Assembly: GCA_965637545.1 (NCBI GenBank) | Contig: OZ281496.1 | Location: 14,384,001-14,448,000, forward strand | DNA length: 64,000 nt | Direction of reading: 5' to 3' | DNA from: Phallusia mammillata | Lineage: Eukaryota | Shown here: positions 5,009-63,342 of the stretch, piece after piece | How the letters are laid out: each line of letters starts with the position of its first letter | Position numbering within the stretch: the stretch's first letter is position 1 | The notes under the pieces: generated by a model | Databases searched by the model: none | What the model was told of the DNA's origin: nothing | What the model saw: the letters and a program-made list of their open reading frames with translations, nothing else | Program-made: the position numbers and the translations under genes

Positions 5009-5459
5009 CAGGGCTACTCAAATTTTCTTGCTCTGCGACCCCATTTTGAAACAGAAATTTCTACGCGACCCCTTGATGGGTATGCTGTAAAGAAATATAC
5101 TTATATATATACCATCTCATAATTCCTAAAAAGCCTAACTTTTTTCTGACTTGATACACAGCATGACAGTCTTAGTTTTTATGACGTAATAATCTATATT
5201 GTGACACTTGTGGTATCTGCTTTTCCGCATTGTTTGCGCACAATAGGCATGAAAAAGTCTGGCGCATATGGCTACTAGGCTGGCAATACTCTTTGAAGTT
5301 CTGCAAAATGTGTTTAGAGCAGTTAGAATAGACGGGAATGATGTTTAAACAATAGATGTACGCACGTATACTATTTACTGTGACTGACATAATAACCCAT
5401 AATGTTTCGCGACCCCAAAATTATATTTCGCGACCCCAATTGGGGTTTGAGAAGCCCTG
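5009..5459. mobile_element. hAT MITE
   Basis: TIRs cagggctactcaaa / tttgagaagccctg. 8-bp TSD tgtgagac / tgttagac (7 of 8 match). The internal part is shared with 56060-56170. Confidence 0.85.
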
Positions 5460-25967: not shown

Positions 25968-26021
25968 AAAATATCTATGGGGTGCTGCAACTCCGCAGCC
26001 TACTTGCACGAGCCGCCCCTG
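25968..26021. mobile_element. Terminal fragment of the ZMYM1-like hAT family
   Basis: aaaatatct..ggggtgctgca..gcacgagccgcccctg matches the termini at 46288-46339 and 62580-62630. Confidence 0.75.
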
Positions 26022-28709: not shown

Positions 28710-28848
28710 GGTTCAGATGTTTAAAAAGGTTAATTTCCTGTGCAAACAAACAGAAAATATCAATAAAGTTTAAAACCACGCGGCACAGTCAGAAATTCGC
28801 AAAGGAATGAACTTCCTGGGCAAGATTTTTGCCGCGCAAATCTGGGTG

Positions 28849-28911
28849 TGACGTAACTTTTCGCGCCGAGTTTCCGATTTGATTTTATACTCCTAAACTT
28901 TTCGCGCCAAT
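28849..28911. promoter_or_regulatory. Candidate E2F/CRE/CCAAT motifs in the CACTA bidirectional promoter
   Basis: aacttttcgcgcc occurs twice, with TTTTCGCGCC at 28858-28867 and 28899-28908. TGACGTAA at 28849 and CCAAT at 28907, all between the two divergent genes. Confidence 0.45.
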
Positions 28912-29129
28912 CGATTCTTTTTAATTTGTGAAATTAAAAAGTTACAAAAGATGAAAAAAATAAACGTTTTGAAGATAAACTAATGAAGTTGAAAATCTTT
29001 TTAAGTGAAGATCAGAAAGTAGCGAAACGTAAGGACGTTACGCTCATCCGAATTTAACTAAACAGGTTTATTTTGGCTGAAACTGGTTCACTTCATATGG
29101 TTCATAGTCATAAATCATGATCAGTTGAC

Positions 29130-32100
29130 ATGTGTAGTACTAGTGTGGAAAGAATTTTGTTCAAGTGCACATTTTGTGCTAACTGTTTTAAAAGTAGAAT
29201 GGCTTTAAAAAGGCATGTGTTTTCTTCCCATTGCTATGACAATACTTTCAAGCTAATTTGCAACATAGATGGTTGCTCGATGCAGCTAAATGACAAAGTT
29301 TCATTGCGACAACACATTAGAAGATGGCACTGCGGGAAGTCCTGGCATATGCCGACTTGTTGGTACAGATACTCGTCCAGCAACACTGCCTCCAACATAG
29401 AAGAAATTACCGTTCCAAATGACACACCAATGGAAGAAGAAACTGGTTCATGTGGTAGTGATTGTGACACTACTACTTGCAGTGATGCAGCTTGTGAAGA
29501 TTCTTGTATTGATCAGGACATTATTACTTACAGAAACACAATAAAAAACTTGCACAAAAGAAAGCAGTTAATGGCTCTTTCACTAACCAAATTAAAGGTT
29601 GATTGTAATTTGACTGAGTCGGCTTTACATTTAGTAGAAACGTGGGCAGAAGGCCTACTAGAAGAGAGTATTCGAACTATAATAGGAGGAATTAAGGCAA
29701 CGCCACCATTGTCTTCAAGCCATAAGGAGTTATTTCAACTCGCAATGGGATTAGCCAACCCCTTTCATGATATTGTGACTGAATATCAAAGAAAAAAACT
29801 TCTTCCAACATAGGTGGTGTACTGACCCAGTGGGTAGACAATTAAACACTCCGTGTATCTGACTCTAATAATTAAACTATCGCTGCCTAAACAAACCTAA
29901 CAAGACGCAAAGCTAAATTAACGTTCCCACATTATATTTCAATAAAGCATGCCACGAAAATGCCTCTTACGGCTAAACACGCAACACAAAAGTCACGACG
30001 CCAACGCGTGAGCTACACCCAAGCAAGCTACTGTAACTAATAAACTTGGTAACTTATGTACTGAAGTTAAATCTAAATTGACGCGGTTTATATAGCGACC
30101 AGGTCAAATGTTGTTATGTAAGCGCAGTCGTAAAAACGTACGCCCGAGAAGATGAACTAAGTTCTAAACCGCAATTATTCTTTAAATTGCTTTACAGAAG
30201 TGTCACATATAACATGGCTGGAGGTTAATTTAGACGTGGTTCTTGTTAACACGTTAAAAGCGATACAACAATAGCCTTAAGCCAGTATATGACCAGCGTG
30301 GTGATTAGAAAACAGGTTTAAAAGCCGGTCAAGCTTTTGTGTAGAAAAAAGGTGAGGTTTGACCGAGTTTGACCGGGACAATATGACACGACAATTATAC
30401 GAATTAAAATGTTTTGAATTAAAAAGTCCAAAGTCCGATACAGTGGTAAGTGTGATTTGCCATGGTTGCCAATATTGTATTTTTTAACTGAAGTATACTT
30501 AAACAGACTCCTATACGACATATATTATTTGAATGTCCGAAAGATGGTTCGAAAGAAGGCGTGGAGTACCATTCACTTGAGTATATTTCACTTATTGCAC
30601 TTTTAAAAACATTGCTGGAAAATTCCAGTCTCTATGACTGGGTAAGTATATTTGCAGCATTAGATTATACAAAGTGTGCTTCGTGGAAAATATTCATCTC
30701 TAAATTTAACTAAGATCATCGAATCAGAAGAGGATTTGGATGATGTGGATGCATATCAAAGTTTTTCACATGGAGAGTATGCAAATATGCATCCTCTTTT
30801 TTCTGAAGCAAGACCAAACTTACAACTTTTATTTTACTATGATGGATTTGAGGTTGTTAACCCGCTTGGATCCAAAACAGGCACACACAATATGGGTACA
30901 ATAAGCAGTTTTGTTTGTTGTATTTCGCATTCAAGTCTTTTTTGTTTCTCTTTCAAGGTGCAATATATTTTTTGATACTCAACACTCACCCCAAACTTAC
31001 ATCAGCTGTAACTAGAATTTTTCTCAGTACCCTATTTTATACTAAAGATTTAAAACACCCTCAGATTGGTTGGGAAAAAATTTTGCAGCCACTTAATCAG
31101 GACATAAAGCAACTTGAAACAGTAAGTAAAATGTAGTGACAACTGTAACTTAATGTATATATATTTCTGTGTGTGTGTTTTGCAGATGGGTGTTCAGTTC
31201 AATTATAAGGGTTCAGAAGTGACTGTTCGAGGGACAGTTGCACAAATATCATTGGATAATTTAGCTGCACACTCCTTTCTAGGCTTTACCGAGCGATTTT
31301 CAGGGTTAAATACATTCGTATCAAGATACTGTACGTGCACTGGAAATGACATTCAGACAAAGGTAAAAGGCTTTTTATGTGTTGCTTATTAAGTAAACTA
31401 TTATAAAAACTTTTCGTTTGCAAAGTGTTTAAATTTGTTAGCATAAAGTGTTCTCCAAATGTTTTAAACAGAATTCCTACAAACAATGTCAACTACGAAC
31501 CCCAGAAATGTACAACGAGTCAGTAGTAGTAGCACAGGCAACAGGGAAACCTCATCACGGTATAAAATTTCGATGTCCATTGTTATCTCAGTATTTTCAC
31601 CCAGCAGAAAATTATGCTGCTGATGTCCATCATGATTTATTTGAGGGTGCAATTCCATACATTCTTAAACTAACTTTACAGGTAGTTCGATTGTTAGCAT
31701 ATAATCATGAGTACATCTTGCCCTAAACTTTTTTTTCTTTTAAACAGAATCTGGTAATTAAAAAAAGACTGTTAAGTCTTGATTGTCTGAATAACAAAAT
31801 TGATTGCTTCAAGTATGGTATTGACCTAAAAAACAAACCATCTCATATTTCTTATGGCAAGTTGATTGATGATTCAAACAAAAATTTGCGCCAAATCGGT
31901 ATGACATGTGTGTATGTTTGTTCAACCTAGTTTATTTTTGCTGTATTTGTTGTTTTGTCAGCATCACAATATTGGTGTCTATTCCGATGTTTGCCAATGT
32001 TGATTGGAAGCTACATTCCTGATGAAGATGAAGTTTGGGAGTTATATACAATGTTTTGTGGAATTGTTGACATATGTTGCGCACCATTTGTTTCTGGGAC

Positions 32101-32830
32101 CACAGTAACTGAACTGGAGTTAGAATTGCAAAGTTTTTTTAAAATGTTTCATGCCAGGTATCCTGATGCAACAATTACGCCAAAATTGCATTTTTTACTA
32201 CACTATCCAAGATTAATTAAAAAAATTGGTCCTCTAATACATTTTTCATGCATGAGATTTGAGGCCAAGCATAAAAGTTTAAAGCAAATTGTCACCAGGA
32301 GTAACAATTACATTAATGTTCCACACACCATTGCTGTCCAGCATCAAGTGAAATTAGCATCAAATATTATTGAAACTGACATATTTTCATGCTCTTTCGA
32401 AATTAAAAAGTTTACAACTGTAAATTCACGTGATGTGTTTGGATCAAGTAGTAGCCCCACTGATGAAACTTATGTTAAAAAAACTGACAACCTCGTATTT
32501 GAAGGGATAACATACTCTGTACCTTGTGTTGTATGTGTACATGTTTGTTCTGATGGGGTGACAGATTTCCTGTCAGTAGATGCTGTTTATTTGAGTTCAT
32601 CATGTGGTCCAATACTTGTAGGGCAGTTGCTTTGTGTTAATTATTACAATGAACATTATCATGCATGGTCCGTAGAACCCACATCAGTGAAAGCGTATGT
32701 TCTTCAAAAAAAATTATTTTATCCTCACCCTTTGTGCATAGTTTCCCCATTCGGTGTATTTGAGAAATTTGTGTGTCCAAAATTTAGATTAGAGCCATTG
32801 AAATGTTCTGCCTGTATGTATTTGAGTTAA
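29130..32830 (+). CDS. CACTA/EnSpm transposase with N-terminal C2H2 fingers, multi-exon
   Basis: YYDGFEVVNPLG, DNLAAHSFLGFTERF, DVHHDLFEG, ITPKLHFLLHYP, SCMRFEAKH. Most introns join in phase. An in-frame TAG at 29811-29813 precedes an unexplained ~690-bp interval. Confidence 0.85.
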
Positions 32831-33865: not shown

Positions 33866-35960
33866 CAGTGGCGGCTCGTGCCTGACATTTCTGGGGGTGC
33901 TGCTCCAAATTTTAACCTTTATTTAACATATATAAGTTGGCAATATATAGAAAAGCCACATTTCTAGATTTCCAGCCATTGTTTGTGTAGAAAAACGAGT
34001 AATACAAATCTTAATTAGTAACTCCATTGTAACGTAATTTTCGTTACGCATTAATGTACACGAGTGTAAACAGCAGACAGTGTATCACTGGGGAGTTTTG
34101 TTTACTTGCATGGCAACGGGCCAAACTCAACAACATGCGGTAATAATGTGGCACAAAAACACACGTGACACAGATTCAAAATAAAGCGAATGTTAATACG
34201 GCAAAACACTCACAACAATATATTGAACAAAATAGTAATAATTGGTCGAAAAGTATTTCAGTTAGACAACATTTAAGAATAACTGGTTATAACAATGACC
34301 ACTAAGTAACACACCTGCTATTCAGTCATTAATATGGTCATGTTTCATTTGAGTAACTTATAGTCACAGTCATTGTTTCAACGCATCTTTTTGACACTTC
34401 ACAGATTATTGCCACACAAAAAACTAGCCACAAATTTTTATTGGTATCATAACTGACAAATTTTACAACCACATTACATTTGTGCCGGAACTTGGTTATT
34501 TAAACATATTTTCTTTAAATTTTTGTGTACAGACTAACAATTGTCTTTCAGTTTGCTTATAATTTCCTTTTTTAAAGTGCAATACTCCTCCAAGCTTTTA
34601 AATTTACAACAATCTCACGTAAATTTGACCCATATGATGAAACCTTGTGCTTCCTTTTTACAACCAAAATGAATCAGAAAGTTATAGTTTGGGCAAAATA
34701 ATTGATAGCTAAGAAACTGTTTGTTTCAATTTAGTGCTAGCACTGCAAATACAAGTTATTTGGTGTCCTTAGAAAAGCTTGCATCCTTTTCAGTGTTGAA
34801 AAGAACCGTTTTGCCTTAAGGACTCATGGAAATTGCAAAAAGGATTTTTCATCTTAGTAATTTAACTTGTCAAAACATCATCGAGATTATTTTCAAAGTA
34901 ATCATGAACATCAGATCTACAGAAACATCTTTATTTCAGTAACTAGCTTTTCTTTGTCAACAATAGGATATGCTTGGTGGCCACTACTATCTCCTCTGTA
35001 GAATGTTCATTCTTAAGAAACACTTCCTGTGAAGCAATTTTGCAGCTACTGTTTAGAGAAACAGTACATGTCCAGTATATCAATACACATGATTGCATTT
35101 GGTTGCAAATACTGTCCACATGGTGTGTTAAGAAGCCAAAACTTTAAATGGTAATCACTCAGTTATTTCAAAATTCCTGTTGGTTCTGCATTTGATATTG
35201 CCTGAATTTCAGTGAGGCATTTAACTTCACAGTCACAGAGCTATTTTTCTTTGGTAGCATTCAGAACTAAAACTGAGTATTTCTTGTTGTTGCCTATTCC
35301 TGCATGACATATTTGGAATAGCAGATGTTTTATCCCATTCTGTCTTAAAACTTTTTAATTCAGTTATTTATTATCAATGTTTATAATAATGTATTTATCA
35401 TAAAGGTTAATCGTGATAACTGCAAAAACTGAAGCCCACTAACAGTCATCTTAAAAAGTCACGACTAACCTTCAAACAAATAAATTGATAGATGGCAAAA
35501 TAGTTATTTAACTATACTCACTGCCGAACTTAAGAACATAGTACACGGGTTTTGCTTTGGCACACAATAAAACCCGGAACAGACGAATACATGTTGGATT
35601 GCCGGCTCACACGCTACGTGATTAATGGAGCTGCGCCAGCCGCAGCACCCTGTCGCCTATTTCGCCCGGCATGTAGCTTTTCCAAGTGCGCACAGCGACA
35701 AAACGTCACGAAACTGGAACTGCAGCTTACTTATTCAGCATAGATCACTTATTAGTTTCATATTTTTTTAAAAAGGTGATCAAGGGGCAAATTATGCTTA
35801 TCATATATTGCCAACGAATAAAAAAATAAAAGTTGTATGTAATATTATAGTAGGAGGTAAAAATAGGTAAAGATAAAAATAAAAAATAAAATAAAAATTA
35901 GGTAAAAATACACAAAATAAAAAGCTATTCACTAAACCTATTTACCAGGTGTATTTAAAA
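33866..35960 (-). mobile_element. Degenerate ZMYM1-like hAT element
   Basis: Terminus cagtggcggctcgtgc at 33866. Eroded dimerisation motif near 34760-34830. Segments 35020-35090 and 35540-35870 are homologous to 45240-46290. Confidence 0.6.
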
Positions 35961-36961: not shown

Positions 36962-37270
36962 CTATACAAAACTATCCATATAATTAACAAAACCATCTCC
37001 ACAGGCAATTACTTCTATCATTGAGTTGGACATTTTTTCAAAGGTATTAATATGCACAGGAATCGTTATTGTCAATGAACATGTGCTCACAGTAGGCAAA
37101 CAGTTGCATTTGGTACCATTCTGTGATGTCATGCACCCATGTTTAAACTCAACGGTAACATCATGTGGAAGCCCAAGTGAAGGTTTTCCGGCAAATCCAG
37201 TGAAGAACTTGATGAATTCCTTAAATGACACTGGTGACTTTTCTGTGATAAAAACACAAATTAATCGGTT
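36962..37270 (-). pseudogene. HECT-like (G2E3-type) E3 ligase C-terminal exon
   Basis: FIKFFTGFAGKPSLGLPHDVTVEF..LPTVSTCSLTITIPVH..M.EVI.CGDGF matches the G2E3-like HECT C-lobe with the catalytic STC. Upstream exons are eroded. Confidence 0.65.
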
Positions 37271-38479
37271 TTGTGGTGAACTATTGTAATGTATGTAATA
37301 ACATACAATTTCAATCATCTTTCAGCATACCGTCATAATAGCATGATTTCATAAGGTCCAAAAACACTTTGTTGCATAACATTAGCAAACGTTTTAGAAT
37401 CCTTGGGTATATCTTTGTGTTTGTTAAGAATATGACTTTTTAACCCCAAAACAACCACCTTACATATACACACTGACTCCCCGTAAAAGTCTTATAATTT
37501 GCTAACTTCTGTCTTTTTGCAAAACTATCGTAGAAAAGTCTTCTCTAAAATACCTGGATGCTTCTTTCTACGACGTGTTGCATTGGTAAACATGTCACTA
37601 CAAAATGGACATCGTCTGACTTTCCTCCCAGAGTTTTGGACCCTAAATTGCGTACATCCTATTTAGCCCATCTGCTTGTGTGACAATTTACAAAAAAATT
37701 CTGATGAATTTATGTGACAGGAACAACAATATAACCAGTTTACCTCATTAAATTAGACTATGCGAAGTGATCCGTATAATAATTTTGAAATTCTGAAATA
37801 CTTTTAAAGATATATAGCAGCTCAATATCCACAGTTTACCTTCCATGAAACTGTGAAGCACTACCGCTGCTGGAAAACCTTGCTGGTTTGTGTCCAATAT
37901 GATGTGATCTGTATGATTATAGCAAACACAATTAACATTACAAAATTCTGTGATAAAAACATAGAACTACAGTTTACATTATACGCGACAGATAAGCACT
38001 ACTACTTCTAAAACACCTTGACTGTTTGTGTCCAAAACGAAGTGATTTTCATGATTACAGGAGACACATTTAACATTCTAAGTAGCAAAGTATCCACAGT
38101 TTACCTTCTTAGAACATGAAGAACTGACGCTAAAAAATCTTTATAATAAAACTTTAGACTGTATCTGCTATTGACATAAAGTTATAAATAACTCTATCGC
38201 AACCATTTTACCTGTGTGCAAATGAAGAGGCACTGCCTGCTGCTTCAAGATATATTTAGGCCATTATAACTATCATATCTTTATAATACAAACCCGTTAA
38301 TCTGGATAGCTTGTTTTTTTTTTGCATTACTTCTTTGTAAATTGGTATATATATCTAAACCTTCACATGTTATTACAGGTACAAATACCATAAAAATAAA
38401 GTCATGTTATAACTTCACTAAACAAACTACCTCAACGTATTATTATCACCGGTATCTGACCAGCTAAAATGAACCTACC

Positions 38480-39495: not shown

Positions 39496-40840
39496 ATGGA
39501 TTTAATTCAAAATGAACAGTGTATTTTGGAAGTTGAAAAATACCCAAATCTACATAATATTACACTTCATTCATATCGTGATCGAAAAAAAAACGGGAGA
39601 AAAGTTGAGAGGAGATTGCGAAGGCTTTTAATATTCAGGGTATGATAAAACTCATTTGTAGGTTCTCTGAGCCACAAACATTTGGAAAAATACAGATTGT
39701 GGTGAATGTTATTTCTATGTTGTGTTCCGGTTTACCTTGTTCCGTTTTTCCTTTCCGTTACGCCCCGTTACTTCCTTCCGGTCATTAGTGTTTTGTTTAG
39801 TTAGCGGTAGGATGTCTAGTTTTCTTGCGTATGGGCTTATTTGTTTTCTACATTTCCTGAGTCATTTATTGTTTGTGTTGCAGATACATTGCTGTATTTT
39901 TACTTTAATAAAGCCAGAGTTAAATTAACTCCTCAATGGTCATCACACAGATAAAATTTATTTTCTAGACTCTGACAGAGTACAGCAATGTATGTCTAGA
40001 TGGAAATCGATTAGAGACAAATATGTGAGAAAGAAAAGGAAGTTGGAAGAAAGTTTTAAAAGTGGTGCGGCAGCATCACATACAGCAGTTTGGCCAATGT
40101 TTAATATTTTGGAGTTTATTTCTCCGTCGTCAGCCAAGAAGGTAGTATTTCTAAACATGTTTAAAATATTTGACATAAAATTTCTGTACATTTTAGAACA
40201 TCATCAACTTCAGCCAGGCTGAAAATAATGAGATAGAAGTTGGGTCAGACTTTGTCATATTAGAAGACAATACTGGCAGTCCCAGTAGTGAGAACACAGG
40301 TGAGGGCCTGAAGACAGATTTGACATCACCCCAGTTCATACAGCAGACAATGATTAAAAAGTTTTGCAAAATGTGTTTTTGTATATCTGTATATACCTCA
40401 TCAGTGTGAAATGTTCCATCACATACCAACACATATCTACTGTTTATGTCTACACATGTTTCTTCACCAAACAAGAGAAGACATGATGATGTTGCTGAAA
40501 AACTACTTGAAGTGTTAAAAGAGCCTCCTCCAGGTATGAATATTATATGGTCAAATATATTAAGAGTGTACTTTAGTCAAATACTTTTTATATTTATTCA
40601 AACAAGTTGTAATTGCAGTTTTATGTATAGGTAAGTTACTTATAAATGAATCAGCACATACTTGCTGCAAAATGCTGTCACCATGAATTGTTGAAATATT
40701 GTGTTGCAAACATGACTGATATATATTTATTTTATTTATTAATTCACAATGATGAAGATGAACTGTTTGTGTCGCCCTGTTCGGTGAAGCGGTTGCATTG
40801 CACATGTGGTGTCCGGATGGGCAGACACTTCTTGACTTAG
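39496..40840 (+). pseudogene. Harbinger MADF/Myb-like DNA-binding protein gene
   Basis: ILEVEKYPNLHN..., CMSRWKSIRDKYVR..WPMFNILEFI and BESS-like DEDELF. Spliced, with frameshifts. Confidence 0.75.
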
Positions 40841-41346
40841 ACAAGACGAATCAATCTCATCACGCAGAAAATTATGCAAGATGGTGCATGCTTTGACAAT
40901 ATCATCGACGCGCGATGGATTGACCGCTATCGGCCTGCGAAAAACTCGAAATCTGGATGCCATAATGCCAAACGCGTTTTCCACAATGCGTCGAGCCCGT
41001 GACAATCTATAATTAAACACTTTTTTGTCGTAAAATCTTGTGGACGCTCCGCTCTCATTTCCTGCACCAGAGTGTGAAATTCACCTTGAAATAAAAACCG
41101 CTTACAAAAACCTAAATGTATGATTTACATTTCACAACATAACAAACCTTTTTGACTTCTGCGTTGCAATATAGGGTGAACCCAAAATTGTCTTTGTTTT
41201 CTTTTGGAAAGCAAGTAGCAGCATGCAATGACTTTACGACGGCGATTTTGCCACACTACTAAATTATTACTTTTGTACATTTTGTACCCTGTTTGTAGTG
41301 GCTGCAGTTGTTTACAAAAGAGAACAATCAGGTCGTCTTGCTTCAT
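40739..41346 (-). pseudogene. Harbinger transposase, internally deleted
   Basis: FWVHPILQRR and GEFHTLVQEMRAERPQDF jump directly to FNYRLSRARRIVENAFGIMASRFRVF..ACTILHNFL. The DDE core is missing. Confidence 0.85.
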
Positions 41347-45239: not shown

Positions 45240-46339
45240 CTTAAGAAACACTTCCTGTGAAGCAATTTAGCAGCTACTGTTTAGACAAACAGTACATGTC
45301 CATTATATCATACTCATCTTTTTCATCATGTCCACGTAAGGTAGTTTCAAAGTTTCCACAGAACAAAATGCAGTCTATTATTTTGGACAAAATTTCACGA
45401 TTTCTTTTTTCACTTTTTTGTTGTGTTCAATAATTGAAAGTCTATATACGCCTCACTAAGTTTTTCCTTAACATTTATAGTTCCCGTGAAACATCATTGT
45501 CCACATGCTTCTTTGACATCTCATGTTTTTCTGCTTTCTCACCTATTTTGGCTACATTTGTAAAACCATCTTTTGTCCGTCATTTTTCATCACCTCCAAA
45601 CAGCAAACATGGAAAACAGAACAGTGCATTTTTAACTTCACAACCACAAAACCATTTTTTCTTTTGATACCATTTAGAATTAAAACAGCGTATATATTTC
45701 TTGTTGTGGCTCATTCCTGGCTGACAAAGTTGAATATCAGGCGTTGGACGCTCTTTTTTCTTTATACTTACCTTTTCAGCACTTGATAACTGCGAAATCT
45801 TAAGTTGCTGAAGCTCACTTACAGTCACCGAACTAGAATCTTGAAAAGCCATGATTAACCTTTCAATCAAAAACTGTAAAAATGATTAAAAAAGAATAAC
45901 TGTCGTACTGTACTCATTGTCGAACCTGATGGTACACGTGATTTGCTTTGGCACACAATAAACGCGGAACAGACAACTACTTCCGGGTGCCAAGGTCACA
46001 CGCTACGTGAATGGTGGAGCTGCGCGAGCCGCAGCACCCTGGCTCCTATTTCGCCCAGCATGTAGCTTTTCAAAGTGCGCATGCGCAGAACCGCAAAACG
46101 TCATGAAACGTCAGAAAACTGGAGCTGCAGTTCCAGCATAGATATACATTAGTGTTTCCCCAAAAATTTTTTTTAATGACAAAAAAGGTGATTAGGGCGG
46201 AAATTATGCTTGTTATATATTGCTAAGGAATAAAAAATAAAAATAATGAAAGTTATTTGTAATATTATGGTAGGTGTATTAAGTAAAAATATCTAGGGGG
46301 TGCTGCAGCTCCGCTGCACCCTAGCACGAGCCACCCCTG
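45240..46339 (-). mobile_element. Non-autonomous ZMYM1-like hAT (TTF zinc-finger 5' part)
   Basis: RPTPDIQL..YIRCFNSKWYQKKKWFCGCEVKNALFCFPCLLFGG. Terminus gcacgagccacccctg ends at 46339. Closely similar inverted copy at 62580-63342. Confidence 0.85.
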
Positions 46340-48552: not shown

Positions 48553-50860
48553 GTGATGTCACGGCAAAAATTATTTACTGCTGATGAAGCTTTAGATAAA
48601 TTGTTTGCACTAACAGAAAATTGTAGTGATTCTGAAGCAGAGGGTGATCTAGTAGAGGAGGAAGAAGAAGTTTTAGCTGAGTCAATGTTCTGTGCCACAC
48701 CAGACAAACAGGAGGAGGTCACCGTTGAAGTGATATGCCCCAGTAACAGCATTGAAACAAGACATAGTGCAAACAAAAGTACACTAGTCAAGATAAAAAA
48801 GCGGAAGTTGCTAGCTAGAGTAACAAGAAAAAGGTCACATGATCAAACAGAAAGAACAGATGTTGATCTTAGTTTGTTTAGTTGAGAGGAGGATGGAGAA
48901 AATGTACAAACCTCAGATATAAAAGACAGAAACACTGTTGACGACAATGGTTGGTCTTCAAGACCTTGTTCTTTCTTTGATGAACTCCCAGATTTTGGTT
49001 CTACATCAGTTTCTACTAGTGCCACCCATGACTTTGGGTCTGACACACTTTCAGGACATTTTTTGAGAGATTTTTCAATGATACGCTGTGGAACTTTTTG
49101 ATCAAAGAAACTAACAAATATGCAGTTCAGAAGGGAATTAAATACTGGTCCCCAGTTTCAGTTGATGAGATGAAAGCATTTGTGGGGACATGCATTTTGA
49201 TGGGAATCCACAAATTGCCTTCAGTTGATTGCTTTTGGTCATGAGATCCAATATTACGTGTTGAGTCCATTCACCAAGTAATGACATGTAAACGTTTTAA
49301 AAAAATCACTGAGGCTCTTCACTGCAATGACATTACAACTGCAATCCAGAGAGGAAATTCAGGCTATGATAAACTTCATAAAGTTCGACCACTTATTAAT
49401 CATTTTGATAACGTTGCACAGTTTGAAAATAGGCATTCATCTTTTCAGTCTATTGATGAGTCTATGATTTTGTTCAAGGGGAGAAATGCAATAAAACAGT
49501 ATATGCCACTAAAACCAATAAAGAGAGGATATAAAGCTTGGGTAAGAGCTGACCCATTAACCGGTTATGCATCTCAGTTCGAAATTTATACTGGCAGATC
49601 ATCTGAATCTGGTAAACCAAGTGATTCATTTGGTAGTAAAGTGGTGAAATTACTCAGTAAAACTATATGTACTGAGCAATATGAGAATCATCCAATACTT
49701 CTTGTTTTTGATAATTTTTTCACTTCATTTGAATTGTTAATGTTTTTGCATGAGGCAAATATGTTTTCAGTTGGCACTGTTCGGGCAAACAAAAAAAGCA
49801 ATCTTGTTCGTGGCGAATCAAAGTCTTCAACTATAGAAAATGTTTGTGCAATACAATGGAAAGACAATCGAATAGTAAACCTGCTTACTACTGCAATACA
49901 ATGGAAAGACAAATCGAAGGACACAGAAAGATGGATCAAGAACAAAGTTATCCTGCCCAAAAGCCATTAAAGATTACACAGCATATATGAGAGGAGTTGA
50001 TCGATTTGATCAGCTTAAAGAATATTATTCTGTGTCAAGAAAATCAAAGAAGTACTGGCATAGACTGTTTTACTTTATTTTGGAAGCAAGTTTAGCCAAC
50101 TCTTACATACTCCACCAGGGGTGACACTAAAACGCTGAATGGGCGGGATGGGCGGGACGTCGCGGAAACCGCTCAATATCGGGTAAATTGCTGACGGTTA
50201 GTGCTGTTAGGGTTAGGTTGAGGTTTTATAATAGTATATGAATCAAAAAATGTCCCTGCCTAAAACTTATTCAACTATTTCCTGACATTAGGCAAAAATG
50301 CTATGGCGGGACGTCGCGGGAGATGGCGGGACGTTTCGGGCGCGGAATGTAGTGTTCGGCGGAATTTTTTTTAATGATTTACTATTATAAAACCTTATCC
50401 CAACCTTAATAGCTCCAACCGTCAGCAATTTAACCCGATATTTAGCGGTTTTCACGACGTCCCGCCATCTTCCGCGACGTCCCGCCCTCCATTCCGCCCA
50501 TTCAGCGTTTTAGTGTCACCCTCCACCAGGTTTATTATGATGGGCATAACATTAAGCCAAAATCTTCCCATTTGCAGTTCAATAAACAGGTTGCCCTGTA
50601 TTTGATTGCCAACTTTAGCTCAAGAAAAAGAAAAGTTATTCACCCATGTTATTATCTCCATAAAAAATCTGCTCATGGGAAGAAAATTTGTGTCCCACCT
50701 GAAATTCGATTTCAAAATGTTGGGCAACATCTTCTACAGGCAGTTGAAACTTACGGAAGGTGTAGATTGTGTTCAAGTGTAAAAAAAGACAAAAGAAGCA
50801 AAATTATTTGTCCTACATGTATGGTTCCCTAGTGTATTGCACCTTTTTTTCAAGTTTTGT
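48553..50860 (+). mobile_element. piggyBac (PGBD4-like) transposase pseudogene
   Basis: DKLHKVRPL, SIDESMILFKGR..QYMPLKPIKRGYK, FDNFFTS, YMRGVDRFDQ and C-terminal GRCRLC..CPTC. Stops and frameshifts. Element ends not found. Confidence 0.9.
50119..50521. mobile_element. Foldback MITE with GG termini and 8-bp TSD (Merlin-like)
   Basis: 28-bp perfect TIR gggtgacactaaaacgctgaatgggcgg, extended imperfectly for more than 100 bp. TSD tccaccag (50111-50118, 50522-50529). Inserted in the piggyBac CDS. Confidence 0.85.
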
Positions 50861-51049: not shown

Positions 51050-52230
51050 CCAACAATATCTCTTCATTTAAAATTTTGTTCGTCTGTTCTTGTTCCATTC
51101 GCAGTCAATTATGTAGGACACAAATTGCTTTAACTACATGATCAGCATTGTGTGGTGCCATTCTGGTAGGAGCCCGGAGAACATGAAAGTGCCTAACCAA
51201 CATATCGAATGCATTTTCCACACGCCCACGTGCTCTTGAATGTCTAAAAGTAGGATGCATATAAACTTTAGGTTGGGATATGTTGACAGGTACTTGGGCC
51301 CTTGGGTTGGGAGGAGAAAATGTTAAAAAGTTTTTTTTTTGTAAAATACTTTACAATTATATTTGGGTAATTGGGGTAAGTATAACATAAATAATTAGGC
51401 ACCTGTAATCATATAATTTCTTTTGTCTTGTTTGGTTTGCACCTCCATAAGATTTACATGCAATCCAAATGCAGCTTCTACAACAGACACATAAGGAACT
51501 TTTGGAGAAGTTGTACCAGGTAGGCAGGTAGTGCCTTCGGCTCTGGCAAATTAAGTTGACCATTTTCCGAAAAACACCAGCATCACCCTCACGACCATGA
51601 CTACCAACAGCTACCATAATGAAATTGTAATGGGCCTCTACCACTGCTAGTAGCACAATGCTGAAACTTTTCTTGTAATTAAAATAACTGTGATTCACAT
51701 TTTACAGGTGATTGAATAGCACAATGTTTTACCCCTGTGACATAATTTCGTGTAAAAATATCATTGTTAATAGTTTCTAAATGTTAACTTACCATCAATT
51801 GAGCCAACACAATGAGGAAAATGCCAAATTGTTTTAAAACCATCTGCTATTTTAGTCCAAGCTGTCTGGTCAGGTAATGTTAAGTATTTATTGTGAAAAA
51901 CGTCCCATATTGCAGCACAAGTCTCAACAATAATCTTTTGGACTACTTTCTTACTCATTCTGTATGAGTAACCAATATTTAAGTAGGTATCTTCAGTTGT
52001 CAGATATCTATAAAAATGAATAGCATACATTCAGAGATGTAACAAGTATATTAGCCGGAATAAAATGCAAATATTTACAACACACTTTGTTATGAAAAAA
52101 AAAAACCTTATCCATGCTCTGCAACAAAAAATAAAAGAAAAAGTGTATGCAACATTTAATTTGACAAGTAGGAGTTTACACAAAATTGCTTGAGTTAGGC
52201 CAGTAGAAATGAAAGCCAATGTTTTACAAA
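51050..52230 (-). mobile_element. Degenerate spliced Harbinger transposase
   Basis: WHFPHCVGSIDG, FNYKKSFSIVLLAVV..VGSHGREGDAGVF, SRARGRVENAF. Confidence 0.85.
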
Positions 52231-54920: not shown

Positions 54921-55811
54921 TCAATGTTCGATATCAACTGTTTCAAGCCTTGTGAAAGGTGAAAAGGGATATTTCAATATATCCTTCCAAGTTTCGAACG
55001 TTAAAACAAGAGCTAATAGGTTGCAAGCAATTGCTGCTGCAAATAGCTCTAACTCCACATACAAGTTACTAAGTATTGCTACAATATCAGTTGAAATGCA
55101 AAGGAGGGACATAAAAGCTGTTCGTTTAATCATTTGTAACCCGGCAATGCCATTTACTCCTTGCTGGGCGCATTTAAATGGATAGAGAAAAAGAAAGAGT
55201 AGTAAGCACTGGCCACCAAAATCAATTGCACTTCCCCCTATTAAAGGCCACACAGCATTTCCATCAACACGTTTACACCCATACCCAAATGACTGAAATC
55301 GTTGAGTAATGGAGTATCCAATGCAAGCAGTAAATATGCCCGAATTCAGAAAGACAATGCTCGACCAACTTAGTACTTTAATCCAACATTTGTAAAGGTG
55401 ATTTAAAAGCGAACTTTTGTAGAAGCATCGTTGTTTGTACCACAGAAATGTGTAAACTGTACATACATTAAAACCTAGCACCATGGCCATGACTTTTGTT
55501 AAAGTTTGACATGTTTTCGTTGATCCTAGAAAGTAACCAACATTTATAAAACATAAGTCAAGCACGGTGTATATGACGACTAGGATGGACGCTGCACTAG
55601 TCAACATATACATAACCCATACATTTCTGTCTCCACTTGTATACTTGTTGTGTGAACAACCATAAGAAAATATTGCAATAGTCAAGTAAATGGTAAAGCA
55701 TAATCCAGTTGCATCTATCGTCTGCCAAGCAATTTTTTGAGAAGAAAATTTGGTTGCACCCTTCGTTCTTTCTTCGATGTCCGCGAGAGTGGAAACGTTT
55801 AATTCCATCAT
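54921..55811 (-). CDS. Intronless seven-transmembrane (GPCR-like) protein, 296 aa
   Basis: Intact ORF with about 7 hydrophobic segments, an N-terminal NVS glycosylation site, Cys at the start of TM3 and in ECL2, and FLWYKQRCFY after TM3. Confidence 0.8.
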   Translation of the reverse strand: MMELNVSTLADIEERTKGATKFSSQKIAWQTIDATGLCFTIYLTIAIFSYGCSHNKYTSGDRNVWVMYMLTSAASILVVIYTVLDLCFINVGYFLGSTKTCQTLTKVMAMVLGFNVCTVYTFLWYKQRCFYKSSLLNHLYKCWIKVLSWSSIVFLNSGIFTACIGYSITQRFQSFGYGCKRVDGNAVWPLIGGSAIDFGGQCLLLFLFLYPFKCAQQGVNGIAGLQMIKRTAFMSLLCISTDIVAILSNLYVELELFAAAIACNLLALVLTFETWKDILKYPFSPFTRLETVDIEH

Positions 55812-56039
55812 TCAACAAAATCCAAAATTAAACTACAATTTTCAATCAATAATAATCTGCCAAACCAAGCCCGGTTATAACGGCATACAATGTCAACCGC
55901 AGTTATAAGCAGCACAGCGTATAAGAAACCATACTCCCTTCTTTAACGGTAAGATCTGATTGTGAACTGTATCGGTCCGACAATGAACTGAAACTCAGAA
56001 GTGACAGCCCGAAACTCTTATGCGTAATATATATTGTGA

Positions 56040-56440
56040 CGCTTTTGGTGCATGTTTTTTCGCATTGTTTGCACACAATTGGCCTACAAAAAGTCTGGCG
56101 CATATGGCTGATAGGCTAGTAACACTCTTTTTTCAGTAACACAAAATCTGTTTAGAGCAGTTTGAAAATCAAAATTTTGCCGAAGGAATTGTATTTGCAT
56201 CACAACCGCCCGTACATCGTCTTAAAGAACATAAGTTTACGGCCGCATGTGGCTGTGAGGTTTGAGGAACGGTTTAATATACTATCGTTTCTATTCATAA
56301 CGTATTAATTTATGTTTGTAAATTAAATTTCTGTAAATGCCTAGTTAAATATTAGCTTTCACTTTAAAAAGTGAGAAACGAAATTCATTGTAATTAGATA
56401 AAAATCTGACAAAATACTAAAATTTTTGTTGACACCACTG
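56040..56440. mobile_element. hAT MITE, left end unclear
   Basis: Right terminus gttgacaccactg ends at 56440. Internal homology to 5225-5335. Confidence 0.6.
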
Positions 56441-56630
56441 ATCTACGGCCTCGTGTCACAGGAAGCAATTAAGTAGTTCCGGGTTACATGTTAAATGTAG
56501 GTTTAAATGCATATAAACGATTTTAATATGGTGATTGCATGCGCAATATAAGGGCAGTAAAAAAATCAAACGAAATGCATTGTTTTTACATGAAGCAATC
56601 GTGCTGTCAAAAGACCACTAAATCATTGTT

Positions 56631-58650
56631 TTAGATTTGTAGCAGAATTAATCTTACTTTACAAAATTTACATGCTGTTTTCCAACTAACGCGCCTACTC
56701 CGTTTGCTGCCAGGACGGTGATTACGTTTACCAGAAATTTTTACTCTACCCTCAACTTTATCGACATACGACCAAAATGTAACAACATACTTCACTCCAC
56801 ACTCCACACTGGCATAATTCACATCGTTTATGACCACAAGAAAAGTTTACCCAACCCTCTTTGAAACAATTATCACAATCAACAATGTCCATGACCCTGT
56901 CAACGCTAAAAAGATAGTTATTACCAATGTTTGGAACACAGGCACTGTATATTTTTCTAAGATGTCTAACTGTAATGCCAACATACACGTCATTTGAAAA
57001 ATGATTGGGCTTTCTGTTCTTTACCATACAACGCCATTCTTCCAATGAAAGAACAAACGAAGCATTTACATCAACTTCGTCGCAGTGTTTAAACAGTTGA
57101 GTATCAGCGCCAATCCCAGCTACTTCATTTAAAACTTCGTTACCCGAGTTTTTAAAGCAGTTATTTCTACATCGTCAGGTGGGTTGGAATCATTATCAAA
57201 GAACACGCGGTTATCACTGTTAGATTGTCCGGGTCTACAACTAAACTATTACTACTATGCTAATTGTTTTCTACCACAGTACTGTCAGAATCGTAGTTAT
57301 CAGTCAAACCATTGACAACACTTGAGTTATCATCGCTTAGTTGTTGGACGTTTGCGTTAGGAGACAGACCGTTCTTGAGTGGACATGTTTTGCTTGTCGA
57401 TTTATGGACGTAAATACATAAAAAACCTGATCGGGATTTGTCCCCGGGAGTGTAAAAAAAATTACTTGATTTAAGATTTGTACCCGGACAAATCAAATGT
57501 AACCCATTCCAATCTTTAGCTGAAAATGTTATAGCTGCGCATAACCTATCAAACACACACCCGGGATGAAACCATTGACCACATGTTTCACACTCGACCA
57601 TTAGACCTCCATCGTAGGGAGTATTACAAACGCAATAAAGTTCAACGGTATCTGATGACGATTCACAGGGAGACAACGGACTGTCAGAAATAGGTGTTGC
57701 GTTAACCAATCCATTTATTTCATTATAGTATTGTTGTATAGCTCGTCGGAAAGAGGTTTCCATTAACCATTTGCGCTTAATAGTTAGAATGTTAACGTTG
57801 TTCACTTTCTTTTTTCGAGCTGTAAGAAAGGATTTAATAGCTTTGCGGGGCAAAAATTAAGTATTCGGAAACGAGTCTAAACAACGAACCAGTGAAGGTA
57901 ATGTGCGAGTCCATGTTTGTTCTGGAGTAAGTTCAGCATCGACAATCGAACTGCGACCTAAACTATCTTTTATTTCTGTTTGGTGCGACTTGCAAAAGTT
58001 TTGAAGCTTTTTAAGTCGTTTGAGAAAACTCCCCCCCTTCCAAGATTTATTGTTGCTAAGAAATTTTACGTCATGAGTTTTATCAAAACTGTTTTTTCGT
58101 GTAATTGCAGATATTGACATATCGACTCAACCATTTTCTTAGACTTAGGAAACGGTGATCCGCCATTTTTCACGCGGAGCGAGGAAAGACGCAAGCGCGG
58201 AAAAAAATCGCAACTTCTTACCATTATGATCAATAAGTCGGCAGCGACGTATGGTCCGGCGTAGAAGCATTGATTTAATAAAACTGCTCTTTCGATCTTA
58301 AGGCTTGCTAGAAGGTTCCGCAACCACTGCATTATTGCCCCTTGATCGACCCTTAGCCTTGCTTGGTGGCTTTGTAGCATTTACTGCCTTGCCCCTTGCT
58401 CGACCCTCAGATTTGCTTGGTGGCTCCGCAGCACCTACTGCATCCTTGCCCCTTGCTCGACCCTTAGCCTCGCTTGGTGACTTCGCAGCACTCACTACCT
58501 TGCCCCTTGCTCGACCCTCAGCCTTGCTTGGTGGCTTCGCAGCACTCACTGCCTTGCCCCTTGCTCGACCCTCAGCCTTGCTTGGTGGCTCCGCAGCACT
58601 CCCCGGCTTGCTCCTTTCTTGACCTTTTGCTCCTCTGGCAGTTGGACTTT
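56631..58650 (-). pseudogene. Disrupted gene: basic repeat, PHD finger and Cys/His-rich domain
   Basis: Overlapping ORFs in shifting frames. PHD LYCVCNTPYDGGLMVECETCGQWFHPGCV lies in 57260-57853. The repeat exon has an in-frame TAA at 58298-58300. Confidence 0.6.
58325..58603 (-). repeat. 54-bp coding minisatellite, about 5 copies
   Basis: Unit ttgccccttgctcgaccctcagccttgcttggtggcttcgcagcactcactgcc encodes AVSAAKPPSKAEGRARGK on the minus strand. One copy has an extra codon. Confidence 0.9.
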
Positions 58651-58792
58651 CAACCTAAACTCCGATAGAGGGTCTTGTCTCTACAATACATTGAAAAGGA
58701 AGTAATTTACACCCGGAGATATAAAAAATGATCAACAAGTCGTATGCTTATATAGAGTAATGAAACAGCTTTATTCTTAAGATGTTTACCTA

Positions 58793-59459
58793 CTACACTC
58801 CAAGAGCATTAACATGAGCTTCGAGACTGGTCATGTAATAACCGAATCCAACGTCGGAGAGGTGAAAGCGGTCGCTCCAAAGCTCCCTTCTGTTGCCGAT
58901 GTTAAAATCAAGAAAGCTCACGCCGTACTCGCTGGCGAGATCACGTAGCACCCTGTTGGTCCCAGGTACACGGCAACCGTTTGTAGTGTTCTGCTGGAGA
59001 ATTCCAGCTAAAACGACCTACAAAGTTTTATTATTGTTTTGAATAGATACATAAAAATGTTTTGTTGTGCATGTGACTCAAATCTACCTGGGCCCTTGTG
59101 TACACGTCTAAGCAGATTTGAACCAAGTTGCGGAAGCGGGCTTTAATAGAGGCGATGGAAGTGCCTGAATTTATGTCATTGGTCCCGAGAGCCAGAATCA
59201 CGATGTCAATGTGATCAAACTTCCGCCCCAACTTCAATTCGATTGACCCGTGGTTGATACAACCTCCTGGATTAGAAATTGCATTTAAAGTAAAAGCATC
59301 ACTGCTGGAAGATACCACCAGTGGATAAACCAGGTTCCTTCCGTTGCTGTCGGTCACCAACAACACAGAAGGAATTGGTGAAGCTTCAGCACGGAGGTAG
59401 GCTGTCTGCTTCCCGCTGACACCGTATCTGTACTTAATAAGAGTCGTTCGTTTTCCCAT
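58793..59459 (-). CDS. SGNH/GDSL hydrolase, 2 exons, 198 aa, apparently intact
   Basis: Exons 59459-59088 and 59017-58793, separated by a 70-bp phase-0 GT-AG intron. Blocks I (VTDSN), II (PGG), III (LGTND) and V (DRFHL) are all present. AATAAA lies just downstream. Confidence 0.85.
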
Positions 59460-61270
59460 CCTTATAGCTTGTTTGAATTGAATATTTGTTTGCAGTAGAA
59501 TTGTTTCTGAAAATATATTTAAACAAACAGAATCTTTTAGTACATACGTCAAGCAATCCGAGAGGAACATAAATACTACAACTAAAGTGTATACAGTGCT
59601 GCAATCACTGGCGAGTGTGTGAGTACGTTTGTTCAGTTTTGCTTATTTTAAGTCGTGTTTGCAGAGGAAGCTCAAACGCGTTTGTAGTCAAACAATTGAT
59701 CGAGGACGTTCCTTAACCTTTCTCCTGCCGACTATAGAATTTCTTTTGCAATCCAATGTATTTTTTCAACATAAGTGTTGTATTCATGACACCAAGTAAA
59801 CGGAAATAAAATAGAATGATTTAACTCAACATGCGCAGCATTATATAGGCAACGATTATCCATTTACATTCCACGGAAAACACGCCAGATTAGGAATAGT
59901 GTGCTTGCGGACCATACTTGAAATGTAAGGAATGCTGCACTGCGCTGAAGGCATACAAGGCTCGAAATAAGGTGCTAATTGAAACACAACGTTGGAAATT
60001 ACAAAGCAACAATAGAAATCCTTAACAATATGTTTGTCATAGCATAAAGATGTTACGCAATTTTCAAAAGTACGTTCTATTTAAGGAACCACGGCAGGAA
60101 AAAGGTTAATGAGTCCGTGGTCGAGCTGACAAGACTAGTTCTTTTCGAATTATTTTTTTTATGTATGGTCTCAATTTACACAAAGCTCAAGTCAAACGAT
60201 TTTCAAACCGCGAGAAGCAGCAATTTTTTGTATAACTTAGGTGGTTCATCCTAACAAATGGACATGATTAATTATTCTTTATATCCATGTTCCGTTTGCA
60301 ATGTAATTGACATGTTGAAAGGTAATTTGTATTAAAAAACACGCAAAGAATTACTGTAATTATTTGAATTGTTAACACAATGTTCTCTGCAACATATGAC
60401 TCGCCGTTGGGTAGTTAGGCTCACAAAAACCCTGTATTATCTTCAAACGTAACTTTATAACGCAAAACCTGCAGTGTCTAGTCACTTGGTGAGTTTTACC
60501 TTATTCTACCACAGACAAACTTATAGTAATAGTCATCAGTCACAATGAACATGTTGTAAAGGACAGTTTCTCTTCCACTCCATCGGATAGAGTTGAGATG
60601 ACGGATGAGTTACCTTCTATCACTTCAGTAACAAGTGAAGACACCTTAAGTTGACCTTTGATACAAAAAGCCCGAAGCTATCAACCTATGGCATGTTTTT
60701 TTTGTATTTGACTAAATCATTTGGCTAATTGGTATGATACTAAAAGGTAAAAAAATCTGAGAAAAAAATAGGAGCAAAAAACAAAAGTAAAACTTGTCGT
60801 CCTGTGGTATTTCATCCCACACTTGTAGTTTTGGTCTTAAGCTAAGTAATTTTGTCACTGTGCTGACGTAACAGGTTTTATTGGATTGGCAAAAAACGAA
60901 GGGTAAACTTTGGGTCTTTCTTTTCGGGGTTTATAGTAATCCTCTCCGATCAGAGTCATGTGCAATATTAATAACCTTCAAAATGCGCCATCATTCGAGC
61001 TTTGATCAAATCGCGTGTTGCAGAAAACACGAGATCAAACAATCTTAGTTTGTCAGTTTTCCTCTCCGCAGATCAATGATTACCTCCAGGTTTCTGGAGA
61101 AAGACTGATTCAACTCGGGAAGGCCAGACTAATGTGGGTCATTATGTTAATTCTCCGAATCTTGTCAAATGAAATTTAATCGAAAAATATTATTTTGTGT
61201 TTGAAGGTTCAATTGAAAAATTATGATGTAAAATGAGCAGCAAATTTGTTAAAGCATTTAATGCGTTTCT

Positions 61271-62577
61271 TTACATTAAATGCGTTTCTTTCTTTCTTGC
61301 ACTTAGAAATACATTTTCCTTTTTGCTAAGTGTTTCTTCAGTATTGTTGTCTTTTGATGCCACCATGACACCACTTTTCGCAAACTTTTTTCGCCGACTT
61401 GCACGTTTTCTGGAGGAATACCCAAAACAAAAAGCGACTGCAAACATTGAAAAAGGACCACAATTTTCAGAAATCTTTGATTGTTTAGTAACACCAGGAA
61501 AAATACAATTTAGCTGTTTATGTGTACATGAAACAAGTTTGGATAAAATGAACTGATCGCAAAGGCCATACGGCGCTTTAGGGCCGCTGTCATAAACAAC
61601 AATCGTTTGCTTGGTGAACAAATATTAGATACAGTTACCCAGTGATTTCCGTCTACATTAACAACGATTTGGACTACCCGCAAAGTTGGAGAAAGCCAAA
61701 CAACTTTGTAAACCCATAACATTCGAAAACTGCTGTGCCAACATGTGCATTGCCGAGTGTATGTGCGAATCACCTAACCATTCATCTGCTTGCAGCAAAT
61801 CCGAATAATCTAAAAGAGAATACATTGAAAAATCTGGTATAAACTTTTCAGCACAGCAGCGTGTCGCCAAACTCTTTTTTACTCGTACAACCCCGAATGT
61901 CGTTTGCAGGGGCCTGCATATACTTGCCTGGATTTTTATTTGGAGTCGCTAGTTTTGTTCGCTTGCTCGACTTTTCCTCAGGCTCTGACGACTGTTTTTG
62001 TTCTCTACAAATTTGCCTGACCACTTTCTTAACACACCTGGAAGCTTTTCTCCGAAACTGTTTTCTTTCTGCCTATCAAATTTTTTTTGCAACGCCCTAA
62101 TCTCGCTTTGATCTAAAACCCGTGTATTTATGGCTTCATGTCGTGCTTTCTTTAACACTGTCTCATTTGAAGTTGCCTGACTCAAAAACATTATCAGACA
62201 GTTTATTAATGCTTTCCGAGTATTCATCACGAGCTGCAGCATTTTTTTTGCTGATGCAAACCTTTCAAGGGACAAGCCACAATTGCTTTGGTGTTTTATT
62301 CCCCAATTTTTTTCGAAAAGTTTTTCACGCACAAAGTGTTGTTTTCAATACGGTTTGGTGAAAAGTGAATTGGCTTGCTAACCGAAACAACGGTATCGGT
62401 CACGCGCTTAGCATCACATGAATTATTGCCTCAAGAAACATGGAATTTGGTCTTCACAACCAGGCGACTGATATCATCGGTGATACTCCTAAATAGTCGC
62501 CCGGGGTTTGTCCTTATTTGACCGGGATTTCGCTATACGTTGTTGGTTCCAAGGGCCAAAACCACAACATCGACCCG
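61271..62577 (-). pseudogene. Ulp1/SENP-like (C48) protease preceded by a second SGNH fragment
   Basis: WLGDSHIHSAMHMLAQQF..GLQ, NVDGNHWVTVS, VVYDS and Q...NCGPF(S)MFA across frameshifts (61271-61870). RVDVVVLALGTNNV at 62533-62577. Confidence 0.75.
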
Positions 62578-62579
62578 AG

Positions 62580-63342
62580 CAGGGGCGGCTCGTGCTAGGG
62601 AGCTGCAGCACCCCCTAGATATTTTTACTTAATACACCTACCATAATATTACAAATAACTTTCATTATTTTTATTTTTTATTCCTTAGCAATATATAATA
62701 AGCATAATTTTTGCCCTAATCCCTTTTTTTTCATTAAAATTTTTTTTTTTGGAAACACTAATGTATATCTATGCTGGAACTGCAGCTACAGTTTTCTGAC
62801 GTTTCGTGACGTTTTGCGGTTCTGCGCATGCGCACTTTGAAAAGCTACATGCTGGGCGAAATAGGAGCCAACGCCTGATATTCAACTTTGTCAGCCAGAA
62901 ATGAGCCACAACAAGAAATATATACGCAGTTTTAATTGTAATTGGTATCAAAAGAAAAAAATGGCTTTGTGGTTGTGAAGTTAAAAATGCACTGTTCTGT
63001 TTTCCATGTTTGCTGTTTGGAGATGATTAAAAATGCTGGACAAAAGATGGTTTTACAAATGTAGCCAAAATAGGTGAGAAAGCAGAAAAACATGAGAAGT
63101 CAAAGAAGCATGTGGACAATGATGTTTCACTTTCACTTTGGGAACTGTAAATATTAAGGAAAAACTTAGTGAGGCGTATAGACTTTCAATTATTGAACAC
63201 AACAAAAAAGTGGAAAAAAATCGTGAAATTTTGTCCGAAATAATAGACTGCATTTTGTTCTGTGGAAACTTTGAAACTCCCTTACGTGGACATGATGAAA
63301 AAGATGAGTATTGATATACTGGACATGTACTGTTGTCTAAAC
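62580..63342 (+). mobile_element. Non-autonomous ZMYM1-like hAT, inverted copy of 45240-46339
   Basis: Terminus caggggcggctcgtgctagg. TTF finger WLCGCEVKNALFCFPCLLF and PLRGHDE. Extra internal deletion near 62870. Confidence 0.85.

Follow-up and report, generated by a model that had tools for sequence, protein, structure and literature searches.

We analyzed a 64-kb stretch of the Phallusia mammillata genome, hereafter referred to as the window, and focused on a 6-kb feature on its minus strand (56631..62577) that combines SGNH esterase and Ulp1-like protease sequences, a basic repeat, a PHD finger, and a Cys/His-rich region. The stretch with the PHD finger and the Cys/His region, at 58126-56685, very probably derives from a single transposase gene, of which it preserves the N-terminal portion in damaged form and nothing of the catalytic core. 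The chances are about even that the 6 kb as a whole comes from the interior of one large and now dead cut-and-paste DNA transposon of Mutator/Rehavkus-like type. When the minus strand was translated in three frames, the pieces were found to follow one another from 5' to 3' as a fragment with SGNH block III (from 62577), then a basic stretch, a Ulp1-like remnant (61820-61290), 1.8 kb without an assignable open reading frame (ORF), an SGNH gene (59459-58793), the basic repeat (58654-58298), and ORF fragments that hold the PHD finger together with the Cys/His region (58126-56685). The original prediction had placed all of these pieces on one strand, as was indeed found. Elsewhere, the window contains spliceosomal-type introns and kinesin, C2H2, and NHL genes, and the host is therefore a eukaryote; CpG content did not cleanly separate the region from the host-like genes.

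The Pfam scan covered 17 stop-free ORFs of the region, in which the PHD finger was the sole match above the curated cut-off (PF00628, E = 4.2e-6, 27.1 bits vs a cut-off of 24), and a PHD profile of the transposase family recovered it with an independent E-value (iE) of 1e-21. The Cys/His-rich region is likewise real, with 21 related proteins at E <= 0.001 among 1.84 billion representatives (phmmer with 56800-57087; best identity 45%). Residues 3-237 of one relative (P0001) aligned by tblastn to 58081-57479 (29% identity, E = 6e-22), while residues 494-554 of a second (P0003) aligned to the PHD finger (47% identity, E = 2e-14) and its residues 748-839 and 829-868 to 57057-56779 and 56804-56685, with 40-42% identity across the Cys/His domain. 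The domain order of the window in these alignments is the same as in the N-terminal part of the relatives. The remnant, all on the minus strand, comprises an N-terminal helical segment (57857..58126) ending at the in-frame stop 57859; a helical region, the PHD finger (57667-57476), and an Asn/Asp/Ser-rich linker (57260..57856); and the Cys/His zinc domain (56685..57174). Two stops (57859 and 57262) and two frame changes (near 57200 and near 56805, the latter inside the zinc domain region) interrupt its reading frame. Homology to the relatives ends at 56685, ahead of the helix-turn-helix (HTH) and the DDE core, and no tblastn or hidden Markov model match to the core was found anywhere in the 64 kb, in line with the initial remark that no catalytic transposase domain is visible. 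Profiles of the family's core, Ulp1-like, and ubiquitin-specific protease (USP) domains gave nothing convincing on the six-frame translated window (best iE = 2.5, 0.022, and 0.083, respectively; a single match within the feature itself, iE = 0.55), which argues that the copy stops before the catalytic core. Unaided, this copy cannot transpose, and only the esterase may still work. Just 3' of the break lie two repeats, 56018-56166 (~80% identical to 5179-5328) and 56394-56432 (87% identical to 2-40), which may derive from the ends of the element or be independent short repeats.

The architecture of the relatives identifies the PHD finger and the Cys/His region as N-terminal domains of the transposase, rather than as separate cargo as had been proposed. 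A further search returned three matches among 3,909 candidates, the query included, namely P0003 (2,074 residues) and two other long relatives (P0022 and P0023; 1,735-2,074 residues for the three). In all three, a PHD finger is followed by a low-complexity linker, the Cys/His domain, an HTH, a conserved core, a Ulp1-like block, and a USP domain. The Ulp1-like block was read from the alignment by its motifs (WL..VV.A, HF.L, DS, and Q...CG) and has no Pfam match; the USP domain matches Pfam UCH in two of the three (E = 1e-19), and the third protein ends within the domain. When 23 relatives were scored with profiles built from these three, which are among the 23, six carried the PHD finger and eight extended past the Cys/His domain. 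The core motifs D(ATG), D(GS), C-x-S-H, and E occur in all three long relatives at spacings of 74, 49, and 267-269, with a conserved DDE triad at D986/D1060/E1327 in P0003. The CxxH motif after the second Asp reads C-[FYL]-S-H in each of them; it is also present in hAT and hence not specific. A PDB sequence search with the family profile gave USP and PHD matches. Among longer proteins, a word-index search started from the Cys/His region yielded 29 candidates, none of which scored, though phmmer finds relatives; a GTDB scan with the transposase alignment gave 62 pattern matches, none confirmed, and plasmid tblastn with P0003 gave no match.

We further compared the relatives with transposases of known structure using an AlphaFold model of P0003 residues 748-1382, made from 24 alignment rows. 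Its mean predicted local distance difference test (pLDDT) score was 56, with high values confined to the first 150-170 residues (mostly 80-94 in the Cys/His domain), and in its topology an RNase H-like start of three strands is followed by a long helical insertion and, late in the chain, a helix. DDE transposases filled each of the top seven Foldseek rows, with ISCth4 in first place and the P element and Hermes as the others (E = 2.2e-3 to 6.5e-3); RAG1 and Transib ranked below them. VIA-align superposed ISCth4 on the model with Z = 5.0 (root-mean-square deviation, rmsd, 13.1; 170 aligned), in an alignment that ends with ISCth4 residue 348 opposite model residue 576, four residues ahead of the proposed Glu. 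ISCth4 is an IS256 enzyme described as similar to Mutator-like elements (MULEs), with D175/D241/E348 and CxxH (PMC7780238, in its available text), and for Aedes Muta1 the available text gives D214/D283/E419 with H307 and a CxxH common to MULE and hAT (PMC5225508). The relatives share with both enzymes the CxxH motif, the helical insertion, and a similar spacing of the first two Asp residues (74 vs 66/69), but their insertion is longer (49 vs 24 from the second Asp to His; 267-269 from the second Asp to Glu), they carry additional PHD and protease domains, and the match is weak. In a wide fold search, the Cys/His domain (model residues 1-112) matched Aft2 (Z = 5.4, rmsd 3.0, 69 aligned), a match that ties with unrelated beta-sheet folds, and model residues 121-183 matched the HTH of SETMAR (Z = 5.0); the search was headed by small unrelated helical bundles, and ISCth4 was absent from its 50 rows. 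Aft2 is described as a transposon (MULE)-derived WRKY-GCM1 protein in the part of PMC1702500 available to us, and its weak fold match suggests that the Cys/His domain may be WRKY-GCM1-like. Taken together, the motif spacing and the weak fold matches favour a transposase of the DDE type whose core holds a helical insertion. It is best interpreted as Mutator/Rehavkus-like, which points to a MULE-like element as the source of the window remnant.

The SGNH gene upstream of this remnant is intact. It runs from an ATG at 59459 to a stop at 58793 and encodes 198 residues in two exons on the minus strand, exon 1 (59088..59459; 124 residues, blocks I-III) and exon 2 (58793..59017; 74 residues with D-x-x-H), separated by a 70-nt phase 0 GT-AG intron (59018..59087). 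All catalytic blocks are present (T-D-S38, G65/66, G-T-N94-D, and D173-x-x-H176), so an initial description of the gene as intact holds for its catalytic content, but the gene is spliced and not uninterrupted. Both halves match Pfam Lipase_GDSL_2 below the cut-off (E = 5e-4 and 1.3e-3). Two of eight candidate relatives scored, P0025 (58% identity) and P0026 (56%), each over 100% of the query; both share the start Met, and their similarity is lost after the same Gln, the apparent intron position, which fits a conserved stand-alone spliced SGNH gene. The contigs of the SGNH matches are short (1,923 and 1,451 bp) and differ in length from those of the transposase matches (13,575, 232,517, and 3,537,570 bp). 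A PDB sequence search with the esterase gave only a weak match (9otv, E = 0.039; E = 0.76 in a second search), and a GTDB scan with the SGNH alignment gave 36 pattern matches, none of which was confirmed as a bacterial or archaeal relative. A strong donor-like site lies just past the SGNH stop and an acceptor-like site just ahead of the basic repeat (58790-58655, minus strand), and the repeat may be an exon.

This basic repeat (58298..58654, minus strand) is an Ala/Lys/Arg-rich 18-residue tandem repeat encoded by a 54-bp minisatellite, for which Tandem Repeats Finder gave a period of 54 bp and 5.3 copies (58335-58624). Its K+R content of 23.5% agrees with the Lys/Arg-rich repeat of the original prediction; it has 54- and 57-nt units and is stop-free in one of six frames, which is that of the transposase N-terminus, with four stops between them.

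Farther upstream lies a decayed second SGNH piece, from block III onward (62434..62577, minus strand), with its 5' side cut by an insertion at 62580. It retains the block-III motif only, with 8 of 13 residues identical to block III of the intact gene, and was the best non-self match of a three-sequence SGNH profile in the window (iE = 0.007). Next to it is a decayed Ulp1/C48-like cysteine protease in four frame pieces (61290..61820, minus strand), recognized by a motif chain (WLGDSHI, HW, YDS, and Q...CG) whose W, H, D, Q, and C occur in order over three frames at 61780, 61644, 61594, 61483, and 61462. The H-D and D-C spacings are 18 and 43, vs 17 and 45-47 in the protease of the transposase family itself. 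The window has a single instance of the chain and 200 shuffled strands have none, with patterns that were written after the sequence was seen. Pfam, PDB sequence search, hhalign, and folding lent this remnant no support (single-sequence fold, pLDDT 35). Both pieces have only motif-level support, and the protease presumably resembles the Ulp1 type of animal DNA transposons. An SGNH fragment running into Ulp1 had been proposed; both motif sets are present, but stops and frame changes intervene and a fusion is not shown. No meaningful Pfam match came from fifteen read-through frames covering 55.8-56.7 and 60.1-62.6 kb, and a Tudor-like impression at 60400-60700 was dropped. Rfam gave no match on 54-64 kb, and NCBIfam none above the cut-off on eight proteins.

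We consider it an evenly balanced question whether the SGNH gene, the decayed SGNH/Ulp1-like gene, and the basic repeat were accessory genes of the same element as the transposase. For a single element speak the common strand and tight packing (~670 bp from the esterase stop to the transposase start) with no host-like gene in between, the shared frame of the basic repeat and the transposase start, the presence of SGNH twice within 3.5 kb, and the room available in an element of Rehavkus size (4,934-18,501 bp; PMC6446971). Several results weigh against a single Mutator-like element. No pair of terminal inverted repeats (TIRs) and target-site duplications (TSDs; 8-11 bp in MULEs) was found within 55830-62579, as the original prediction had already noted for termini, and the ends may no longer exist or may be situated past the insertion at 62580. 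The 23 transposase relatives showed no likeness to 58130-62580 save one 18-residue opposite-strand match (E = 0.018), and the Ulp1-like piece of the window is not detectably similar to the Ulp1 of the family (hhalign probability 0.06%). The repeat units differ mostly non-synonymously (34 vs 3 pairwise), with no synonymous bias. The esterase is intact and its neighbours are broken; zero lesions would have P ~0.05-0.13 if all had decayed alike, in a hand estimate that is suggestive only (5-6 lesions in 1.47 kb of transposase, hence 2-2.4 expected in 0.6 kb; P near 0.1, or near 0.05 once the other remnants are counted). From 26 kb on the window is full of unrelated transposon fragments, and adjacency is therefore cheap evidence. 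The class assignment itself faces weak fold scores (best Z 5-7, core pLDDT ~55), no Foldseek match of the P0003 model in the PDB at E <= 0.001, and no match of the Pfam MULE profile in P0003, P0022, or P0023 at E <= 10, a profile that can miss divergent members.

Somewhat short of even, but still a serious prospect, is that the Mutator-like remnant is limited to 58126-56685, whether or not the basic repeat is included, and that the SGNH and Ulp1-like genes are unrelated neighbours in a transposon-dense region, coming from a small host or domesticated esterase family or from the cargo of a different element, e.g., of Helitron or Ginger type. The intact, spliced state of the esterase, with start and intron position conserved in both relatives, would be expected under such an origin, as would the lack of SGNH in the 23 transposase relatives, the dissimilar Ulp1, and the nested insertions at 59713 and 62580. 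Moreover, Helitrons (PMC4021074) and retroelements (PMC5408684) are known to carry SGNH cargo and to have captured it independently, according to the available portions of these papers. However, chance neighbours account less readily for the single strand and close packing, for a second decayed SGNH adjoining a protease type typical of transposons, and for the lack of any terminus between the SGNH gene and the transposase.

It is improbable that the PHD-Cys/His gene is a domesticated host chromatin factor of transposase origin, lacking the catalytic half and continuing into further exons from a donor-like site near 56660. The homology does end near a GTAAGA donor-like sequence, and WRKY-GCM1 domains have repeatedly been domesticated from MULEs (PMC1702500, as far as its available text goes), but the stops at 57859 and 57262 and the frame changes break the gene even within the zinc domain, and no downstream exon matches the family. 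An endogenous virus fragment is more improbable still: the P0003 model finds its best BFVD match in a bracovirus protein, the uncharacterised O92526 (E = 2.4e-6, template modelling score 0.16), but the scanned ORFs and frames of the region contain no Pfam family of capsid, polymerase, packaging ATPase, or retroviral-type integrase, the esterase gene has a spliceosomal intron, the relatives are DDE transposases, and transposons are known to enter bracovirus segments (PMC2646287, available part), so that O92526 may be a captured transposase of the same group. Of the initial reading as a mobile-element or endogenous-virus remnant, the mobile element, with Mutator-like among the types listed, has stood, and the virus has not.

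Compared with known systems, the transposon reading finds its closest parallel in Rehavkus/Mutator-Foldback, which is likened here by description. Both have a PHD in the transposase, which in our case was seen in the window and in six of the 23 relatives, as well as large elements, a minisatellite, and a DDE core with CxxH, the last seen here in the relatives. The available text on Rehavkus describes transposases with a PHD, TSDs of 9 bp, and a minisatellite in subterminal position, and mentions no SGNH genes (PMC6446971). Here, in contrast, the PHD lies N-terminal to the DNA-binding domain, the relatives end in Ulp1-like and USP domains, and the 54-bp array lies 5' of the transposase, whereas that of Rehavkus precedes the 3' TIR. 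We also presume a resemblance to the Drosophila NOF protein. Ginger1 and Mutator transposases resemble the relatives in having a Ulp1 protease and a PHD attached to a DDE transposase; the Ginger core, however, is a Gypsy-like integrase, Ulp1 and PHD are C-terminal there, and USP and SGNH go without mention in the available text (PMC2836005). Texim of fish Helitrons, ORF1 of the CR1/L2/RTEX long interspersed nuclear elements (LINEs), and ORF3 of bdelloid long terminal repeat (LTR) elements likewise place a catalytically intact SGNH hydrolase beside a mobile element, and Texim genes, likened here by description, also have introns. In the LINEs the esterase sits in an intronless ORF1 upstream of endonuclease and reverse transcriptase, whereas the SGNH gene here has a GT-AG intron. 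Its neighbour is a DDE transposase, with no Helitron Rep/helicase in the scanned ORFs of the window and no reverse transcriptase family in the scanned ORFs and frames of 55.8-62.6 kb.

More tentatively, and somewhat less likely than not, there may be a giant Rehavkus-like family whose transposase combines a histone reader with SUMO-type and ubiquitin-specific proteases, in an element with spliced SGNH genes, one of them fused to a second Ulp1-like protease. Under the leading reading of a Mutator/Rehavkus-like transposon, and by analogy with the relatives and with MULE/IS256/hAT chemistry, the intact enzyme would bind the element ends through its WRKY-GCM1-like zinc domain and HTH, and its DDE RNase H core, with the CxxH motif, would cut and join DNA. 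The PHD finger may read histone tails, and the C-terminal Ulp1-like and USP domains would remove SUMO and ubiquitin, probably loosening silencing or steering repair.

The surroundings are rich in other elements. A small nested element with TTAA at both ends (59713..60109; 21-nt arms, 90% complementary), presumably a piggyBac-type miniature inverted-repeat transposable element, sits between the Ulp1-like remnant and the SGNH gene. The feature is bounded by a later insertion that is not part of it (62580..63342, plus strand), 93% identical to 45279-46339 and belonging to a repeat family that begins CAGGGG (further copies at 35051-35854 and 25968-26021). The original prediction had called it a hAT insertion cutting the right side; the repeat is real, but hAT-like is a label that we assume, with no Pfam match at 1e-4. 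ORF fragments at 28035-32830 and 36962-37321 include transposase-looking fragments and a HECT fragment (E = 1.4e-7); we take the transposase-looking ones to be of EnSpm/CACTA type, again with no Pfam match at 1e-4. Harbinger-type DDE_Tnp_4 and piggyBac-type DDE_Tnp_1_7 fragments lie at 40739-41080, 49245-50124, and 51105-51701, and nested inverted repeats at 50119-50521. An intronless 296-residue ORF at 54921-55811 (minus strand) has several hydrophobic segments and looks by eye like a seven-transmembrane receptor, with no Pfam match. The kinesin motor gene at 21936-24842 (plus strand) has a long N-terminal coiled region, apparent frame changes, and few or no introns, possibly reflecting a retrocopy or assembly errors.

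Our literature searches, which did not extend to Repbase and subscription journals, where the family may already be catalogued, found no description of the domain order of the relatives or of an SGNH gene in a Mutator-like element. We conclude that the feature is the remnant of a known kind of transposon and may include an esterase cargo not reported before. Its main value lies in leading to a transposase family that carries PHD, Ulp1-like, and USP domains in one chain and could be used to test how transposons counteract SUMO- and ubiquitin-linked silencing. If the esterase is indeed cargo, a DDE transposon would here possess an accessory lipid or acetyl esterase, a combination that those searches did not return; SGNH capture would then extend from LINEs, LTR elements, and Helitrons to Mutator-like transposons, and this would argue for an SGNH role that is not tied to RNA particles.

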